IMG/VR virus record: IMGVR_UViG_2681813273_000011
Strand: one strand, 5' to 3'
DNA from: a virus
Taxonomy: Duplodnaviria; Heunggongvirae; Uroviricota; Caudoviricetes
DNA length: 8,659 nucleotides
The position numbers and the translations under genes were made by a program. Under the pieces are notes generated by a model, which was not told where the DNA came from, searched no databases, and was given only the letters and a program-made list of their open reading frames with translations. Shown here piece by piece: positions 378-8,659 of this stretch; within the stretch, counting starts at the first letter, position 1, and every line of letters begins with the position of its first letter.

Positions 378-439
378 CCTCACACAACCGCAAAATCGGT
401 TGTCGGGATTGGCGTCTCGGATAACATCACAACGCATAG

Positions 440-459
440 CCGCGTTTGCGGTTTTTTTT
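440..459 (+). terminator. Terminator-like or attenuator hairpin inside the rha leader
   Basis: ccgc-gttt-gcgg short stem-loop followed by T8 (452-459). An upstream accgcaaa (388-395) is complementary to tttgcggt (445-452), so an alternative pairing is possible. The stem is short, so strength is uncertain. Confidence 0.3.
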
Positions 460-558
460 GCGTTAAGCATTGCCACATTCGCATTATGGTGGGGCGTGCA
501 GGGGCGGAGAAATCCGCGCCGGGTTTTGTGATGACCGGTTACGCCAACCCTGTACGTC

Positions 559-608
559 TCACCACCTCCCTGATTGGCGTCAGAGGTGGTGATCATCCAA
601 TTAATTGG
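559..608 (+). promoter_or_regulatory. 10-bp inverted repeat plus 12-bp perfect palindrome overlapping the rha ribosome-binding site; candidate operator or translational control element
   Basis: tcaccacctc (559-568) and gaggtggtga (583-592) are exact reverse complements around a 14-nt loop. ccaattaattgg (597-608) is a perfect palindrome ending in the GGAG Shine-Dalgarno (607-610). Confidence 0.35.
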
Positions 609-619
609 AGTCATCACAT

Positions 620-1177
620 ATGAATACAGCTATAACTTTTTCTAACGAGTCACCAAAAGTCTTTTTCAAAGATGGTCGCCTGGTTACCACCTCTCAAGCT
701 GTTGCCGACTACTTCGATAAACAACATAAACACGTTTTAGCTAAGATTGACACACTCGACTGCTCTCCCGAATTTACATCAGCCAACTTTTCGGCCGATG
801 TTCAGACTGTCGAAATTGGCAACGGCGCAGAACGTGAATCACGATGCTACCTGATCACAAAAGACGGCTTCATGTTCCTCGTAATGGGATTTACTGGCAA
901 AAAAGCAGCCAGACTAAAAGAAGCTTACATTGAAAAATTTAACGCAATGGAAGAAGAACTCCACAAACGTCCTCCTGCAGCACAAAACTCCCCCGCCCCA
1001 AATAATGGATGCGCATTACTGATCCACTTCGATAAACACGGTCAGGTCGAGTTCACAGAAAAAGTCCCCGCCGATGCGATGGTATGCACTCTGGAACGGT
1101 TTAAATTTTATCTGGAGCAACATGGGTGGATCGTTGCCCGTAAAGAACAATTGGTGGAAAGGTTGATGCGGTTTTAA
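620..1177 (+). CDS. Phage regulatory protein, Rha family (antirepressor-like)
   Basis: ORF track frame 605..1177. I place the start at ATG 620 because GGAG sits 9 nt upstream, giving MNTAITFSNESPKVFFKDGRLVTTSQAVADYFDKQHKHVLAKIDTL. The N-terminal region resembles the Rha family as I recall it. Stop TAA at 1175-1177. Confidence 0.75.
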   Translation: MNTAITFSNESPKVFFKDGRLVTTSQAVADYFDKQHKHVLAKIDTLDCSPEFTSANFSADVQTVEIGNGAERESRCYLITKDGFMFLVMGFTGKKAARLKEAYIEKFNAMEEELHKRPPAAQNSPAPNNGCALLIHFDKHGQVEFTEKVPADAMVCTLERFKFYLEQHGWIVARKEQLVERLMRF

Positions 1178-2366: not shown

Positions 2367-2987
2367 ACCCCATGAACCAGAAGAAACGATTTCAGACGTT
2401 GCCTTGCATGCCGTAAATCATCGCGGGCAGATGCCCATGCCCGGGCCAAATCCCGGAATGCCTCATCTTCAATGCCGGGTACGTAGACAGCAGAAAGATC
2501 TCCTGCACGCAGTGAACGCACAAGTCTGATGGCATCACGGCGATCGGTTTTAACCCGCTCCCCCGGTTTTTTCGGGATAAGTGAGGGGGCGCAGACCATG
2601 CAGTCAAAACCGGATTTCACCAGCCGACGATAAAGTCCATAACCACAGGGCCCCGCTTCATAAACGATACTGACCTGCGATGACTTTGACCTGAGACGTT
2701 TACAAAGATTCTGAATATCAGTAGGTGATGTGCCAATTTTACCCATCAGTTCAACAGGTTCTGAATTGATAGCATAAGCGACAGTAATCGATTCTTTGTG
2801 AACATCTAACCCGACGTACAATGTGTTATTGTTGTTCATGCTGGCCTCCGTGGTGGAAATACCGGGGTGTAGCAACAGCTCACCCATGCGGCTCTGACAA
2901 CGATGTTAACCCGCGTTAAATATCCCACGTTGGCCAGCATCTGTCTCACGGAAAGTCATACTGCCTTACATTGTGTCTGGTTCTTCC
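2367..2987 (-). mobile_element. IS110-family insertion sequence fragment: 5' non-coding leader (2840-2987) plus N-terminal recombinase domain (2367-2839)
   Basis: Minus-strand ORF starting MNNNNTLYVGLDVHKESITVAYA... with KTDRRDA motif is typical of the IS110-family DEDD transposase N-terminal domain. ATG at 2839 with GGAGG 5 nt upstream. About 157 codons remain before the junction with the methyltransferase at 2366/2367. The right boundary at 2987/2988 is inferred from where homology to the other tfa remnants resumes. Confidence 0.75.
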
Positions 2988-3199
2988 GGCCACTCAATAT
3001 CAGGTGCAGTTGATGTATCAACACGGTTCAGCAACACCCGATACTTCTTCCAGGCTTCCAGCAACGAGTTTTCTTCCTCCGTTGCGATCTCCAGATCTAC
3101 AGCATCCTGAAGTGGCGCAATATGCTCACTGAATTCCTGGATGTAGAACTGTGTGGTGACGGTCTTCCAGCCATTCGGCTCCTGCTGTATCGAAGCATA
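2988..3199 (-). pseudogene. tfa: Tfa C-terminal remnant, copy b; its 3' end is replaced by the IS110-family leader
   Basis: Minus frame ...[50 protein letters not shown], then reads into IS sequence. Differs from copy a at 13 positions across roughly 150 bp (1611-1760), then is identical towards the methyltransferase. Confidence 0.65.
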
Positions 3200-3262
3200 C
3201 TAGGCTATTTCAATATCGCTATGCTGCGGCAGCATTTAACCCCTTGTAATTCATCGCCATAA

Positions 3263-3291
3263 TTGATTTAATTCACAAATAAAACTATAAT
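3263..3291 (+). promoter_or_regulatory. sigma70-like promoter of methyltransferase cassette, copy 2
   Basis: TTGATT, 17-bp spacer, TATAAT (3286-3291), identical to copy 1. Confidence 0.5.
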
Positions 3292-3960
3292 ATGGTGAAA
3301 TTAATGAAAAAAAACACAGATGATGGGGCTAAAATTTACACACCACTTACCCTAAAGCTTTATGACTGGTGGGTTTTGGGAGTATCAAATCGGCTTGCAT
3401 GGGGATGTCCTACAAAGGAACACCTTCTTCCACACTTTCTGGAACATTTAGGTAACAACCATCTGGATATTGGTGTTGGAACTGGGTTTTACCTTACTCA
3501 CGTACCTGAGAGTAGTCTGATATCTTTAATGGATTTGAACGAAGCTAGCCTGAACGCGGCATCTACAAGGGCTGGGGAATCAAAAATTAAACATAAAATT
3601 AGCCATGATGTTTTTGAACCTTATCCCGCGGCGTTACATGGTCAATTTGATTCCATTTCCATGTTTTACCTTCTTCACTGCCTGCCTGGAAATATATCTA
3701 CAAAAAGCTGTGTAATACGCAATGCGGCGCAGGCCTTAACTGATGATGGAACTCTATACGGAGCCACAATTCTTGGCGATGGAGTTGTGCACAATAGCTT
3801 CGGTCAAAAACTGATGCGCATTTACAATCAGAAAGGCATCTTTTCAAACACAAAAGATTCCGAAGAAGGCTTAACACATATACTCTCAGAGCATTTCGAG
3901 AATGTTAAAACCAAGGTTCAAGGTACTGTAGTAATGTTTTCCGCTTCAGGGAAAAAATAG
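3292..3960 (+). CDS. Class I SAM-dependent methyltransferase (222 aa), substrate unknown
   Basis: ORF track 3292..3960. Contains a Rossmann-fold motif I (LDIGVGTGF), an acidic residue in ISLMDLNE, motif II-like FDSISMFYLLHCLP and motif III-like LTDDGTLYGATIL. I see no DPPY/NPPY or C5-cytosine motifs, so it is probably not a DNA methyltransferase. An alternative start is the ATG at 3304. Confidence 0.75.
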   Translation: MVKLMKKNTDDGAKIYTPLTLKLYDWWVLGVSNRLAWGCPTKEHLLPHFLEHLGNNHLDIGVGTGFYLTHVPESSLISLMDLNEASLNAASTRAGESKIKHKISHDVFEPYPAALHGQFDSISMFYLLHCLPGNISTKSCVIRNAAQALTDDGTLYGATILGDGVVHNSFGQKLMRIYNQKGIFSNTKDSEEGLTHILSEHFENVKTKVQGTVVMFSASGKK

Positions 3961-3967
3961 CATCCAA

Positions 3968-4000
3968 CCGCAGCACGTTCTTGCTTAAGACGTGCTGCGG
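3968..4000. terminator. Conserved hairpin between the convergent methyltransferase and tfa remnant; probable bidirectional terminator
   Basis: Perfect 10-bp inverted repeat ccgcagcacg / cgtgctgcgg around a 13-nt loop, 8 nt after the methyltransferase stop. The minus-strand side is followed by a T-rich tract. Confidence 0.5.
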
Positions 4001-4005
4001 CATAA

Positions 4006-4095
4006 TCCCAATGATTACTCCCTGACAGGGTTCGTAGGCCACTCAATATCAGGTGCAGTTGATGTATCAACACGGTTCAGCAACACCCGATACTT
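4006..4095 (-). pseudogene. tfa: Tfa extreme C-terminal remnant (about 28 codons), fused to the pin pseudogene
   Basis: Minus frame ...[27 protein letters not shown] with stop (plus-strand tta) at 4006-4008. Homology to copy b ends near 4095. Confidence 0.6.
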
Positions 4096-4341
4096 TTTCT
4101 AGGCTTCCACCACCAGCACGACAAGATGCCGCATACAGTGCCCCAGTCAGTCCAGTTTTCAGACAACCAGTGCGTCACCTTTTTGAAGGCGCTTTAAAGC
4201 ACGTTTTAATCCAGGTCGGCCTGTCCTTGTTCCGCTTAATTTATCTTCAAATATTTGTTCATATCCTGCACAAACAAGAGCGTTTCGTTGCAGGTCTGTA
4301 TTCTGGTCATTTGTTGATACCCTTACATAGCCAATCAGCAC
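4096..4341 (-). pseudogene. pin: Serine DNA invertase (Pin/Gin/Hin family) N-terminal pseudogene
   Basis: GTG start at 4341 with GGGAG upstream. Reads (M)LIGYVRVSTNDQNTDLQRNALVCAGYEQIFEDKLSGTRTGRPGLKRALKRLQKGDALVV*, where the stop replaces the Trp of the conserved VVWKLDRLGRS (tgg to tga). A second in-frame tga follows, and homology ends after about 82 codons. Confidence 0.8.
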
Positions 4342-4395
4342 GCTGAATCTCCCGTCCAAAAGCACAAATCATGCCATGCAGGCCAGAAACCGCCA

Positions 4396-4406
4396 TTATC
4401 TAAAAC
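4396..4406. other. Isolated pix/gix left half-site at the repeat-unit boundary
   Basis: ttatctaaaac is identical to the left half of the full site at 6296-6321. Identity with the downstream copy ends at 4406/4407, one base before the 2-bp core. Confidence 0.55.
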
Positions 4407-4706
4407 AAGATAAAAAGAGACCGAACACGATTCCTGTTTTCGTCAACAAACAATAAAACCCTTTAAAATTAATGCGTTAAATAAATTTACGTTCATCTTT
4501 TAATCCCTGACACGTACCATTGCATATTAATACATTCAACCAGTTACCATTTTTTTCGAGTTTTTTAGAGAAATTTTCGGGAATATTTCAGGTCAATCCA
4601 TGCAGACGCAAGCAATTCCTGTATTGAATAATTCCGTAGCAATTATGTAAAATCATCTCCGGCTGATTTTCATTCAAACTCGCGCTATCGAACATCCATC
4701 AGCCAG

Positions 4707-4739
4707 CCGTGGCACGTTCTTGCATACGACGTGCTACGG
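4707..4739. repeat. Stand-alone copy of the conserved hairpin element in AT-rich DNA
   Basis: ccgtggcacg - ttcttgcatacga - cgtgctacgg: a 10-bp stem with one G-T pair and the same loop family as the tfa-associated hairpins. Followed by a T-rich tract. Confidence 0.45.
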
Positions 4740-4863
4740 TTTCCTTTACGATTTGGGGTTGCGACTTTACCTCTATTGATAATGCATTCCGGCAGAACGT
4801 TCAAATATGAAGTACGATGTTTAACTAACCGAAAAACAAGAACAATACGGTGCAAGCAAGCTA

Positions 4864-4986
4864 TGAGGTAGCCTGAGTTTAACGGACACTCCTTCCTGAA
4901 ATAGAATGGCATCAGAAGGAGCTAATAATGAGCAGAAAAACCCAACGTTACTCTAAAGAGTTCAAAGCCGAAGCTGTCAGAACGGT
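4864..4986 (+). mobile_element. IS3-family (IS600-like) left end, truncated after 123 bp
   Basis: Starts TGAGGTAGCCTGAGTTTAACGGACACTCC..., identical to 8613-8659. An orfA start (ATG 4928, MSRKTQRYSKEFKAEAVRTV) matches my recollection of IS600 OrfA. The sequence switches abruptly at 4986/4987 to the tfa-remnant repeat. Confidence 0.7.
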
Positions 4987-5099
4987 TCATCCAGATCTAC
5001 AGCATCCTGAAGTGGCGCAATATGCTCACTGAATTCCTGGATGTAGAACTGTGTGGTGACGGTCTTCCAGCCATTCGGCTCCTGCTGTATCGAAGCATA
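4987..5099 (-). pseudogene. tfa: Tfa C-terminal remnant, third copy, 3'-truncated at the IS600-like junction
   Basis: Identical to 3087-3199 of copy b apart from the SNP at 5100 noted under the 1900-bp repeat finding. It begins at ccagatctacag directly after the IS fragment. Confidence 0.55.
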
Positions 5100-5162
5100 C
5101 CAGGCTATTTCAATATCGCTATGCTGCGGCAGCATTTAACCCCTTGTAATTCATCGCCATAA

Positions 5163-5191
5163 TTGATTTAATTCACAAATAAAACTATAAT
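5163..5191 (+). promoter_or_regulatory. sigma70-like promoter of methyltransferase cassette, copy 3
   Basis: Identical TTGATT - 17 bp - TATAAT arrangement. Confidence 0.5.
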
Positions 5192-5860
5192 ATGGTGAAA
5201 TTAATGAAAAAAAACACAGATGATGGGGCTAAAATTTACACACCACTTACCCTAAAGCTTTATGACTGGTGGGTTTTGGGAGTATCAAATCGGCTTGCAT
5301 GGGGATGTCCTACAAAGGAACACCTTCTTCCACACTTTCTGGAACATTTAGGTAACAACCATCTGGATATTGGTGTTGGAACTGGGTTTTACCTTACTCA
5401 CGTACCTGAGAGTAGTCTGATATCTTTAATGGATTTGAACGAAGCTAGCCTGAACGCGGCATCTACAAGGGCTGGGGAATCAAAAATTAAACATAAAATT
5501 AGCCATGATGTTTTTGAACCTTATCCCGCGGCGTTACATGGTCAATTTGATTCCATTTCCATGTTTTACCTTCTTCACTGCCTGCCTGGAAATATATCTA
5601 CAAAAAGCTGTGTAATACGCAATGCGGCGCAGGCCTTAACTGATGATGGAACTCTATACGGAGCCACAATTCTTGGCGATGGAGTTGTGCACAATAGCTT
5701 CGGTCAAAAACTGATGCGCATTTACAATCAGAAAGGCATCTTTTCAAACACAAAAGATTCCGAAGAAGGCTTAACACATATACTCTCAGAGCATTTCGAG
5801 AATGTTAAAACCAGGGTTCAAGGTACTGTAGTAATGTTTTCCGCTTCAGGGAAAAAATAG
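5192..5860 (+). CDS. Class I SAM-dependent methyltransferase (222 aa), copy 3
   Basis: ORF track 5192..5860. Differs from copy 2 by one residue (K to R near the C-terminus). Confidence 0.75.
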   Translation: MVKLMKKNTDDGAKIYTPLTLKLYDWWVLGVSNRLAWGCPTKEHLLPHFLEHLGNNHLDIGVGTGFYLTHVPESSLISLMDLNEASLNAASTRAGESKIKHKISHDVFEPYPAALHGQFDSISMFYLLHCLPGNISTKSCVIRNAAQALTDDGTLYGATILGDGVVHNSFGQKLMRIYNQKGIFSNTKDSEEGLTHILSEHFENVKTRVQGTVVMFSASGKK

Positions 5861-5867
5861 CATCCAA

Positions 5868-5900
5868 CCGCAGCACGTTCTTGCTTAAGACGTGCTGCGG
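5868..5900. terminator. Conserved hairpin, probable bidirectional terminator (copy of 3968-4000)
   Basis: Identical 10-bp inverted repeat with 13-nt loop. Confidence 0.5.
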
Positions 5901-5905
5901 CATAA

Positions 5906-5995
5906 TCCCAATGATTACTCCCTGACAGGGTTCGTAGGCCACTCAATATCAGGTGCAGTTGATGTATCAACACGGTTCAGCAACACCCGATACTT
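5906..5995 (-). pseudogene. tfa: Tfa extreme C-terminal remnant (copy of 4006-4095)
   Basis: Identical to 4006-4095. Confidence 0.6.
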
Positions 5996-6241
5996 TTTCT
6001 AGGCTTCCACCACCAGCACGACAAGATGCCGCATACAGTGCCCCAGTCAGTCCAGTTTTCAGACAACCAGTGCGTCACCTTTTTGAAGGCGCTTTAAAGC
6101 ACGTTTTAATCCAGGTCGGCCTGTCCTTGTTCCGCTTAATTTATCTTCAAATATTTGTTCATATCCTGCACAAACAAGAGCGTTTCGTTGCAGGTCTGTA
6201 TTCTGGTCATTTGTTGATACCCTTACATAGCCAATCAGCAC
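5996..6241 (-). pseudogene. pin: Serine DNA invertase (Pin/Gin/Hin family) N-terminal pseudogene, adjacent to the pix site
   Basis: Identical to 4096-4341, with the same two premature stops. The GTG start at 6241 lies 55 bp from the pix site, as expected for a gin/pin gene next to its crossover site. Confidence 0.8.
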
Positions 6242-6295
6242 GCTGAATCTCCCGTCCAAAAGCACAAATCATGCCATGCAGGCCAGAAACCGCCA

Positions 6296-6321
6296 TTATC
6301 TAAAACCTCGGTTTACGAGAA
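6296..6321. other. pix/gix-type 26-bp crossover site (12-bp half-site, 2-bp core, 12-bp half-site)
   Basis: ttatctaaaacc-tc-ggtttacgagaa. Differs at about 3 of 26 positions from the Mu gix sequence TTATCCAAAACCTCGGTTTACAGGAA as I recall it. Lies between pin and the tail-fibre segment, and the fibre reading frame (NLGLRE...) opens inside it. Confidence 0.75.
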
Positions 6322-7080
6322 CTCGGCACAAGCGGGGAGAAAATACCGTTACTCAGTACAGCGAATACCTGGACTAATCGACAAACATTCAGCGGTGGCC
6401 TTTCTGGTGAACTATCCGGCAATGCTTCTACAGCTGCAAAATTAAAAACTGCCAGGAAAATAAGCAATGTGGCTTTTGATGGTTCCTCCGATATCACATT
6501 AAAAGCAAGTCATGTTGGTGCGTTTGCCTTAGGGAAAACAGGAAGCACCGTTGCGAATGATAAAGCAGTTGGATGGAACTGGAGTAGCGGAGCCTATAAC
6601 GCAACTATTAGTGGTGCATCAACGTTAATTATTCATTTTTATATGGGAGAAGGAAGTTGTCCTGCAGCTCAGTTTCGGATTAATTATAAAAATGGCGGTA
6701 TTTTTTATCGTTCAGCCCGTGATGGTTATGGTTTTGAAGCCGACTGGTCCGAATTTTACACCACCAGAAAACCTTCAGCAGGAGATGTTGGTGCACTGCC
6801 GTTATCTGGTGGTCAACTGAATGGTGCACTGGGTATCGGAACATCCAGTGCTCTTGGCGGTAATTCGATTGTATTGGGTGATAATGACACGGGCTTTAAA
6901 CAAAAAGGCGATGGTAATCTGGATGTTTATGCTAATAACGTCCATGTTATGCGCTTTGTCTCCGGAAGCATTCAAAGTAATAAAACCATAAATATTACGG
7001 GACGTGTTAATCCCTCGGATTACGGTAACTTTGATTCCCGCTATGTGAGAGATGTCAGACTTGGCACACGAGTTGTTTAG
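6304..7080 (+). CDS. Tail fibre variable C-terminal segment (Sv-like), silent orientation, no start codon; ends at an in-frame TAG
   Basis: Open frame from inside the pix site: NLGLRELGTSGEKIPLLSTANTWTNRQTFSGG... to ...RYVRDVRLGTRVV*. ORF track 6469..7080 is the same frame. Homology to the other fibre C-terminus continues for 49 codons past the TAG, to a TAA at 7228-7230. Confidence 0.7.
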   Translation, partial: NLGLRELGTSGEKIPLLSTANTWTNRQTFSGGLSGELSGNASTAAKLKTARKISNVAFDGSSDITLKASHVGAFALGKTGSTVANDKAVGWNWSSGAYNATISGASTLIIHFYMGEGSCPAAQFRINYKNGGIFYRSARDGYGFEADWSEFYTTRKPSAGDVGALPLSGGQLNGALGIGTSSALGGNSIVLGDNDTGFKQKGDGNLDVYANNVHVMRFVSGSIQSNKTINITGRVNPSDYGNFDSRYVRDVRLGTRVV

Positions 7081-7232
7081 ACCATGAAGAAAGGCGTGAT
7101 GTATGAAAAATCAGGCCATGTAATCACGGGGCTTGGTATTATCGGTGAAGTCGATGGTGATGATCCGGCAGTATTCAGACCAATACAAAAGTTAATTAAC
7201 GGAACATGGTATAACGTATCGCAGGTATAATC

Positions 7233-8323: not shown

Positions 8324-8611
8324 TTAAACACTCCCCACGTTGTACCATATTCCCCCAATCAATTTCTGAATTGGCCTTCTGGCAACAGTGTCGACAATAT
8401 CATCCGCATTGCTGTTAATTGCGGCTGTTAAAACATAACCTGACGCATCGCCAAAGCCGTAGTCGCGCCATACGTTTTTATATTCAATGCTGCCAAGACG
8501 AATATCCCGAACGACATGATTATGCAGCCATGTGCTTAACCAGTTGTTTTCCCACACTGAACCATAAATATCGCCACTAGACGCAACTTGCGCACCACTT
8601 CCCAGCGCAAA
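8324..8611 (-). CDS. Tail fibre variable C-terminal segment (S'v-like); 5' portion cut off by an IS600-like insertion
   Basis: Minus frame ...[95 protein letters not shown]. The C-terminus parallels the plus-strand fibre segment (VRDVRLG / [12 protein letters not shown]). The first 9 codons of track ORF 8324..8638 are IS-derived. Confidence 0.75.
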
Positions 8612-8612
8612 T

Positions 8613-8659
8613 TGAGGTAGCCTGAGTTTAACGGACACTCCTTCCTGAAATAGAATGGC
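8613..8659 (+). mobile_element. IS3-family (IS600-like) left end; element continues off the right edge of the window
   Basis: Identical to the first 47 bp of the fragment at 4864. Confidence 0.7.

Follow-up and report, generated by a model that had tools for sequence, protein, structure and literature searches.

How does the 5′ part of a DNA invertase gene come to be joined to the 3′ end of a tail-fibre assembly gene, and does anything still work at such a locus? The question is raised by a stretch of 8,659 nucleotides from a tailed virus (Caudoviricetes; IMG/VR record IMGVR_UViG_2681813273_000011), called the window in the following, whose sequence marks it as the cargo end of a prophage of the lambdoid type residing in a genome rich in IS elements. 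An initial annotation, made from the nucleotide sequence alone, had described a pin pseudogene fused to a tfa remnant, present in two copies with the same lesions, and had explained the fusion by an illegitimate deletion that ran from pin into a downstream tfa gene. As described below, the pin'::'tfa object is an ordinary prophage pseudogene that had been annotated before and that was formed once, long ago. Very probably it is a recombination joint, now dead, that arose by cassette replacement at the cargo end of a lambdoid prophage, decayed later and was duplicated passively.

Composition of the pin'::'tfa Pseudogene

Translation of both copies on the minus strand, from 4341 to 4015 and from 6241 to 5915, gives identical readings of 109 codons each, consisting of the first ~77 codons of a Pin-type DNA invertase gene and the last ~30 codons of a tail-fibre assembly gene (tfa). 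The N-terminus of both copies is of the Pin/Gin type (VLIGYVRVSTNDQ…) and retains YVRVSTNDQ, i.e., an intact version of the nucleophile motif Y-x-R-V-S-T-x-x-Q that contains the catalytic serine of serine DNA invertases. The GTG-started reading opens with VLIGYVRVSTNDQNTDLQRNALVCAGYEQIFEDKLSGTRTGRPGLKRALKRLQKGDALVV and continues with TGA, KLD, TGA, LGHCMRHLVVLVVEA, TAG, 27 tfa residues, and the stop. When the stops are read through, Pfam detects Resolvase (PF00239, E 6.9e-22) in residues 3-83, corresponding to positions 2-91 of the 145 of the profile, and the extreme C-terminal end of Caudo_TAP (PF02413, E 3.8e-12) in residues 79-105, corresponding to positions 104-130 of 131. The full length of Caudo_TAP (~130 positions) is not reached, as positions 104-130 alone are matched and this piece carries a TAG codon in addition. 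At the junction, pin and tfa are joined in frame, the minus strand reading GTGCTGGTGG followed directly by TGGAAGCC (4119-4102).

Each copy has three premature stops, two in the pin part and one in the tfa part (Table 1), and the two TGA codons that interrupt the pin' frame recur in copy 2 and in other strains. On these points the initial annotation was right: an N-terminus of the Pin/Gin family with an intact catalytic-serine motif, its inactivation by nonsense mutations and truncation, its fusion to the 3′ end of a tfa, and the presence of two copies with identical lesions and junction are all recovered. The feature that it had placed at 4096-4341, with 28 tfa codons, is real, but the tfa piece extends to 4015 and comprises ~30 codons.

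The Resolvase match ends at profile position 91 of 145 and the switch to tfa occurs at 4109/4110, leaving the catalytic domain and the E helix incomplete. In alignments with PinE and WP_000905061.1, nothing pin-like follows the junction and the C-terminal helix-turn-helix is absent. With the truncation, the protein lost its E helix, its DNA-binding domain and ~40% of its catalytic domain, so the invertase was dead from then on, and pin' has no enzyme function.

Table 1. Coordinates of features in the window; where two intervals are given, they refer to copies 1 and 2.
Feature	Position	Strand	Remarks
isrK	384-458		Rfam match
C4 antisense RNA	482-569		Rfam match
Rha-family gene	620-1177		directly downstream of the isrK/C4 matches
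First tfa 3′ remnant		-	left of first methyltransferase copy
Class I SAM-methyltransferase copies	1915-2370, 3292-3960, 5192-5860		WP_000240999.1 type; first copy cut at 2370
IS110-family fragment, 603 bp	2371-2973		Pfam domain match; cuts first methyltransferase copy
Second tfa remnant			between IS110-family fragment and methyltransferase gene 3292-3960
Duplicated unit, copy 1	3090-4406		part of tfa 3′ remnant, methyltransferase gene 3292-3960, hairpin 3968-4000, 'tfa::pin', pin upstream region, outer 11 nt of pix
Duplicated unit, copy 2	4990-6306		methyltransferase gene 5192-5860
pin' copy 1	4110-4341	-	GTG start at 4341; ~77 codons, serine-invertase catalytic domain
pin' copy 2	6010-6241	-	same as copy 1
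'tfa copy 1	4015-4109	-	last ~30 codons; lambdoid tfa-methyltransferase homology ends at the equivalent of 4109
'tfa copy 2	5915-6009	-	same as copy 1
TGA	4159-4161 / 6059-6061	-	in place of Trp of VVWKLD
TGA	4147-4149 / 6047-6049	-	in place of Arg of KLDRLG
Junction motif	4102-4119 / 6002-6019		GTGCTGGTGGTGGAAGCC
TAG	4099-4101 / 5999-6001	-	in place of Trp of the tfa motif EAWKKY
TAA	4015-4017 / 5915-5917	-	natural tfa stop
Candidate recombinational enhancer	4257-4320 / 6157-6220	-	copy 2 by pattern match and position; copy 1 interval is its equivalent
Outer pix half-site alone	4396-4406	+	TTATCTAAAAC; joined at 4407 to sdsR 3′ end / ipaH3-upstream sequence
Complete 26-bp pix	6296-6321	+	TTATCTAAAACC TC GGTTTACGAGAA; core TC 6308-6309; between pin' and tail-fibre variable region
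Tail-fibre variable C-terminal (Sv) region beside pix	6307-7230	+	CAG to TAG at 7078-7080
Intact tfa of invertible segment, 177 aa	7233-7766	+
Second, opposed tfa of invertible segment, 175 aa	7798-8322	-
Opposed tail-fibre C-terminal (Sv) region	8324-8612	-	cut by IS600 end at 8613

Surroundings of the Pseudogene

Positions 1-45 of the window are presumably the end of an IS1. From 131 to 2366, and in both copies of the duplicated unit, the window is 98.5-99.4% identical to the prophage located beside a truncated ompW in the ST131 strain JJ1887; in E. coli, the lambdoid prophage with the pin'::'tfa joint adjoins this truncated gene. The isrK and C4 antisense RNA matches upstream of a Rha-family gene correspond to the known arrangement of the P1/P7-type antirepressor control module.

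Each methyltransferase copy is flanked on both sides by tfa 3′ remnants on the opposite strand. The repeated conserved 3′ ends of tfa look like recombination points for the exchange of cargo between lambdoid prophages. One of these remnants is overlapped by a match to the Rfam family IS009 (3009-3212, minus strand; 130 bits at a gathering threshold of 117), and this “sRNA” family apparently represents a conserved 3′ fragment of tfa. A GC-rich hairpin (CCGCAGCACGT…ACGTGCTGCGG) lies 3′ of every tfa end, between convergent genes, at 3968-4000 and 5868-5900, with related hairpins near 1541-1573 and 4707-4739. It is probably a bidirectional terminator; a simple terminator scan did not call it (no T run). 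The same 47-bp end of IS600 occurs twice in direct orientation (4864-4910 and 8613-8659), and the second of these ends interrupts the opposed variable region of the tail fibre where the window stops.

Origin of the Joint

The orientation of pin bears directly on the origin of the joint. In the window, pin points away from pix and the invertible tail-fibre segment, which means that the tfa genes of the segment are not located downstream of pin; pinE of e14 has the same orientation and precedes mcrA. Intact counterparts are found for either side of the junction, each in a different type of phage. A lambdoid prophage at potB in STO_Bone2 and ATCC 43886 comprises J, lom, stf, a complete tfa directly after stf, a convergent methyltransferase gene, and a tfa remnant. 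With the stub locus this module shares the tfa 3′ end, the hairpin, the methyltransferase WP_000240999.1, and the further tfa remnant, the block from tfa to the methyltransferase gene being 99.5% identical to NCTC86 up to exactly the position of the junction; in contrast to the stub locus, its tfa is complete and it has neither an invertible segment nor pin. Beyond the block that separates the two, similarity between NCTC86 and the lambdoid type returns (96%) in the N-terminal part of stf and continues through lom and J.

The other counterpart is found in P2-like prophages of S3, UTI89, and E300082, in which the tail-fibre gene is followed by pix, an Sv-tfa / tfa'-Sv' pair, a second pix, a complete invertase of 196-199 amino acids (WP_000905061.1 in S3 and UTI89, WP_000905050.1 in E300082), and then by tail genes, with no tfa next to the invertase. 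S3 matches NCTC86 from ~490 nt outside the stf-side pix, across the segment, to about codon 63 of pin; the S3-type pin upstream region, pix, GTG start, and first ~190 nt of pin show ~96% identity. The Sv-tfa cassettes neighbouring the P2-like invertases are shared with the stub locus at 95-98%. Whereas the P2-like invertases are complete and lie between the tail-fibre module and myovirus tail genes, pin' is cut, lambdoid, and situated beside methyltransferase cargo. In sum, NCTC86 contains a 3.67-kb block collinear with the P2-like type, and the sequences on either side of this block are collinear with the lambdoid type.

Because each side of the junction has an intact counterpart in a different phage type, the junction can be read as one joint of a cassette replacement, and the collinearity argues for an origin by such a replacement between two phage types. 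In a lambdoid phage with the arrangement J-lom-stf-tfa and a convergent SAM-methyltransferase gene, ~2 kb comprising distal stf and most of tfa would have been swapped out for a 3.67-kb P2-type cassette that began in the distal tail-fibre gene, included the Sv-tfa / tfa'-Sv' segment with a pix on either side, and ended after ~77 codons of the invertase gene. One joint would lie within the tail-fibre gene, and the other would be the non-homologous in-frame connection of pin codon ~77 to tfa codon -30. Exchange of tail-fibre genes between P2-like and lambdoid phages has reportedly long been known, and the cassette origin fits it.

Some details of the donor deserve attention. Compared with pinE, the DNA of pin' is only ~80% identical, with the exception of the last ~45 nt before the junction, which resemble pinE and not the P2-like allele; either the donor invertase gene was itself mosaic or it represents an unsampled allele. 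A chimeric query consisting of the 5′ part of pin from the window and the 3′ part of pinE returned pinE alone, its 3′ half dominating the score, and the P2-like relatives were obtained through tail-fibre queries. Alignment with NCTC86, ABW_S38, pinE, and an intact tfa reveals no clean microhomology at the junction, and an extra TGG triplet must be assumed. Among the loci sampled from 5426 complete E. coli genomes, there was neither an intermediate nor a direct parent with the exact pin allele.

The initial annotation had favoured a deletion in situ, in which a complete pin stood upstream of a complete tfa on the same strand and one illegitimate deletion took the 3′ half of pin, the DNA between the two genes, and the 5′ part of tfa. 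A non-homologous junction with both halves on one strand would agree with such an event, and further tfa and DUF4376 remnants at the prophage end bear witness to repeated rearrangement there. However, what follows pin in its intact relatives is never tfa but a set of P2-type tail genes or, in e14, mcrA, and the tfa genes of the segment, from which pin points away, could not have served as partner. Moreover, both flanks of the 3.67-kb block are collinear with the lambdoid type, which possesses an intact tfa exactly where the remnant begins, and the sampled loci hold no intermediate of the deletion either. We consider this explanation unlikely. A two-step history, i.e., insertion of the cassette followed by deletion, would give the same end product and is, strictly speaking, still conceivable as a route.

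Distribution and Order of Decay

The joint is old and is found in many strains. Of 5426 complete E. coli genomes, 536 (~10%) contain sequence that covers a 201-nt query spanning the junction. RefSeq lists the two halves as pseudogenes, “recombinase family protein, incomplete” and “tail fiber assembly protein, incomplete”, as was checked in NCTC86, 18AR0845, JJ1887, ZH193, CD306, O25b:H4, and Ecol_656. Because the same junction is present unduplicated in these 536 genomes, fusion and inactivation are older than the duplication. The order inferred earlier, with inactivation and fusion preceding duplication, is correct and greatly understated the age of the joint.

A second context of the junction is known from ABW_S38, AR_0085, and 74-2, in which the remnant is located at the bioA-ybhB site with a diguanylate-cyclase gene as cargo. 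Junction and stops were aligned for the window, NCTC86, ABW_S38, pinE, and one intact tfa. ABW_S38 has exactly the same junction, both Trp codons are still TGG, and the change of Arg to TGA is the sole stop; AR_0085 and 74-2 show the same annotated arrangement as ABW_S38 and the same 64-residue ORF product, WP_001378636.1. The change of Arg to TGA, common to all lineages examined, came first, and the changes of Trp to TGA and of Trp to TAG came later in the lineage of the window. Several missense changes have also accumulated in pin', and three of the four pin' differences between the lineages of the window and of ABW_S38 are missense or nonsense, as would be expected for neutral decay. The order of events is fusion, Arg to TGA, split of the lineages, two changes of Trp to stop and, much later, local duplication; the split included a replacement of the downstream sequence from within the tfa 3′ end onward.

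In a scan of species representatives, the sole match to the junction was on a 2.5-kb contig (JAEWTL010000008.1) of a metagenome-assembled genome labelled “Bacillota bacterium”. This contig is E. coli-like, of the ABW_S38 type, and carries the diguanylate-cyclase gene, and contamination of the bin is almost certain.

Local Duplication and the 4406/4407 Junction

The two copies of the duplicated unit form a 1317-bp repeat with two mismatches (3201 and 3914), both outside the pseudogene, and the joint was passively copied in this much later local duplication in an IS-rich genome. The 583 bp of filler between the copies (4407-4989) are a contiguous piece of another locus. Of this filler, 457 bp (4407-4863) match the intergenic region from pphA/sdsR to ipaH3 of EIEC strains at 99%, and the remainder (4864-4989) is an IS600 truncated at 4989, of which the initial 126 bp are left. 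The Shigella sRNA CssrB has an Rfam match at 4708-4886 on the minus strand. Together with IS1, IS600, and the ipaH3-upstream sequence, this match makes Shigella or EIEC the probable source. Both junctions of the filler are non-homologous and each has one extra A. The first reads …TTATCTAAAAC A AGATAAAAAGAGACC…, the A at 4407 stemming from neither parent. A similar earlier duplication is seen at the first methyltransferase copy, which is cut at 2370 and joined to the next unit via the IS110-family fragment.

The duplicated unit ends on the right at pix position 11 (of 26), no more than 1 nt away from the dinucleotide at which crossover takes place, and an endpoint beside the pix core is unlikely for a random breakpoint. 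The 4406/4407 junction may have been made by an invertase that recombined pix with a poor secondary site at the sdsR terminator; against this stand an A in place of the C expected at pix position 12 and the intact second copy, which such an exchange leaves unexplained. Secondary-site integration mediated by an integrase was considered for the same junction, which abuts the 3′ end of sdsR at the border of the ipaH3 island; it would leave the second, intact unit unaccounted for.

That the lesions or the duplication are artefacts, the stops being sequencing errors or the repeat an assembly error across repeated tfa and IS sequences, is very improbable. The region is certainly repeat-rich, with three methyltransferase copies, four tfa 3′ ends, and IS fragments, and the 4406/4407 junction was found neither in the search of the E. 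coli collection of complete genomes nor in the scan of metagenome contigs. The stops, however, are not sequencing errors, because they are shared by independent assemblies: the same three occur in alignments with NCTC86 and 18AR0845, and JJ1887 shows no difference at the stops. In addition, two mismatches tell the duplicate copies apart and each is joined to its neighbours at specific junctions of its own, which would not be expected of a collapsed or expanded repeat. Hardly credible at all is a function for the N-terminal Pin peptide of 60-64 residues (ORF 4159-4365; WP_001378636.1 in the other lineage), e.g., as regulator or inhibitor of other invertases, since the product has neither E helix nor DNA-binding domain and the ORF, although widespread and preserved in start codon and upstream region, ends at a Trp or at an Arg codon depending on the lineage and differs between lineages as in neutral decay.

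The Invertible Segment in the Window

The crossover site of serine invertases, which consists of two 12-bp half-sites and a 2-bp core and bounds the invertible segment, is present once in complete form in the window (Table 1). In E. coli relatives, a second, inverted pix lies ~3 kb away and exchange maps to the core; in the window, IS600 interrupts the segment at its far end, and the second pix is located beyond the window. The Sv region beside pix is 98.8% identical to a copy that is joined to the constant part of the tail-fibre gene in NCTC86. As NCTC86 joins the same Sv-tfa cassette to the constant part, the window represents the opposite arrangement for that cassette. By comparison with the intact NCTC86 allele, the tail-fibre gene of the segment is a pseudogene here as well, a CAG codon having changed to TAG.

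In serine-invertase systems, the recombinational enhancer comprises two Fis sites ~48 bp apart in the 5′ part of the invertase gene, ~100 bp from a crossover site. In copy 2 of pin', the Fis-like 15-mers GTATCAACAAATGAC (6220-6206) and GTGCAGGATATGAAC (6171-6157), which were detected as matches to a degenerate pattern only, are 49 bp apart and located ~96 and ~145 bp from the pix core. A similar distance, ~100 bp, separates the Hin enhancer from a hix site (PMC3798978). Besides pix, the stub has retained the pin upstream region with the promoter region and that part of the coding sequence in which enhancers of the Hin/Gin type lie; it may still supply a candidate enhancer in cis.

Inversion in Trans in ST131 Genomes

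Orientation counts for the whole collection are not cleanly separable, as Sv alleles have been shuffled among strains, and five related ST131-type genomes were compared directly instead. All five share the prophage, an ISEc12 insertion in lom, and the dead pin stub, and over 447 compared positions their pin' shows 4 differences from the window, all outside the stop codons. A segment of 3083 bp (locus positions 5949-9031) is present in one orientation in JJ1887 and CD306 and in the other in ZH193, O25b:H4, and Ecol_656. The two orientations are exact reverse complements without a single mismatch, and their flanks are identical. The outer half-sites are fixed, i.e., TTATCTAAAACC on the pin side and TTATCGAATACC on the stf side, whereas the inner half-sites, GGTTTACAGGAA versus GGTTTACGAGAA, swap, which places the crossover within a 10-bp interval that holds the core TC.

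The pin stub is dead and yet the segment has been inverted at the pix cores; an intact invertase elsewhere in the cell must therefore act on it. Site-specific inversion with the invertase supplied in trans is, on the basis of these genome comparisons, essentially established for the ST131 segment. RecA-mediated inversion via long inverted repeats was rejected for ST131, in which this pair of alleles has no long inverted repeat, the segment ends diverge 10 nt inside the core, and the exchange is still at the pix core. The segment of NCTC86 holds inverted repeats of ~770 bp that are ~98% identical.

As to the source of the enzyme, the 3′ half of the intact P2-like invertase gene is present at 100% identity in the ST131 genomes JJ1886, “O25b:H4-ST131”, and Ecol_867, the last of which holds both the intact P2-like invertase and the dead stub. 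These matches suggest the invertase of a P2-like prophage as a candidate for the trans-acting enzyme in ST131.

Discussion

In its ancestral features, pin' resembles PinE of e14 from E. coli K-12 and the related Gin, Cin, and Hin: they have in common the YVRVSTNDQ motif, a GTG or ATG start ~65-90 bp from a 26-bp crossover site, and an orientation in which the gene reads away from an invertible tail-fibre segment containing opposed Sv-tfa pairs. Unlike these invertases, pin' is reduced to ~77 codons with two internal stops and lacks the E helix and the helix-turn-helix. The closest parallel for the present state of the locus is the P segment of e14, on which PinQ and PinR act and which is likewise a prophage tail-fibre segment flipped by the invertase of another prophage, PinQ of prophage Qin inverting it in trans (PMC12529663). 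In e14, however, the adjacent pinE is intact, whereas here the adjacent gene is dead and the segment is wholly dependent on a foreign enzyme.

It is possible, if rather doubtful, that the stub is kept in ~10% of the genomes as a carrier of pix and enhancer, an “orphan switch” run by the invertases of co-resident prophages, and that the same pix also served as the site of a chromosomal rearrangement in the source genome. If this were true, a lambdoid tail-fibre segment would be worked in the same way as the e14 segment is by PinQ.

The pin'::'tfa fusion itself matters little, since RefSeq marks it as a pseudogene in hundreds of genomes; it was duplicated as a by-product of the scrambling of an IS-rich genome. 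Only two points are mildly interesting, namely that the segment is flipped precisely although the local invertase is dead and that the duplication ends in the pix core. The locus nevertheless offers a clean and datable example of the transfer of a tail-fibre cassette from P2-like to lambdoid phages in which both joints are visible, and its invertible segment still flips exactly at the crossover sites after the death of its own invertase gene, which calls for caution when phase-variable loci are inferred from the presence of an intact neighbouring recombinase.
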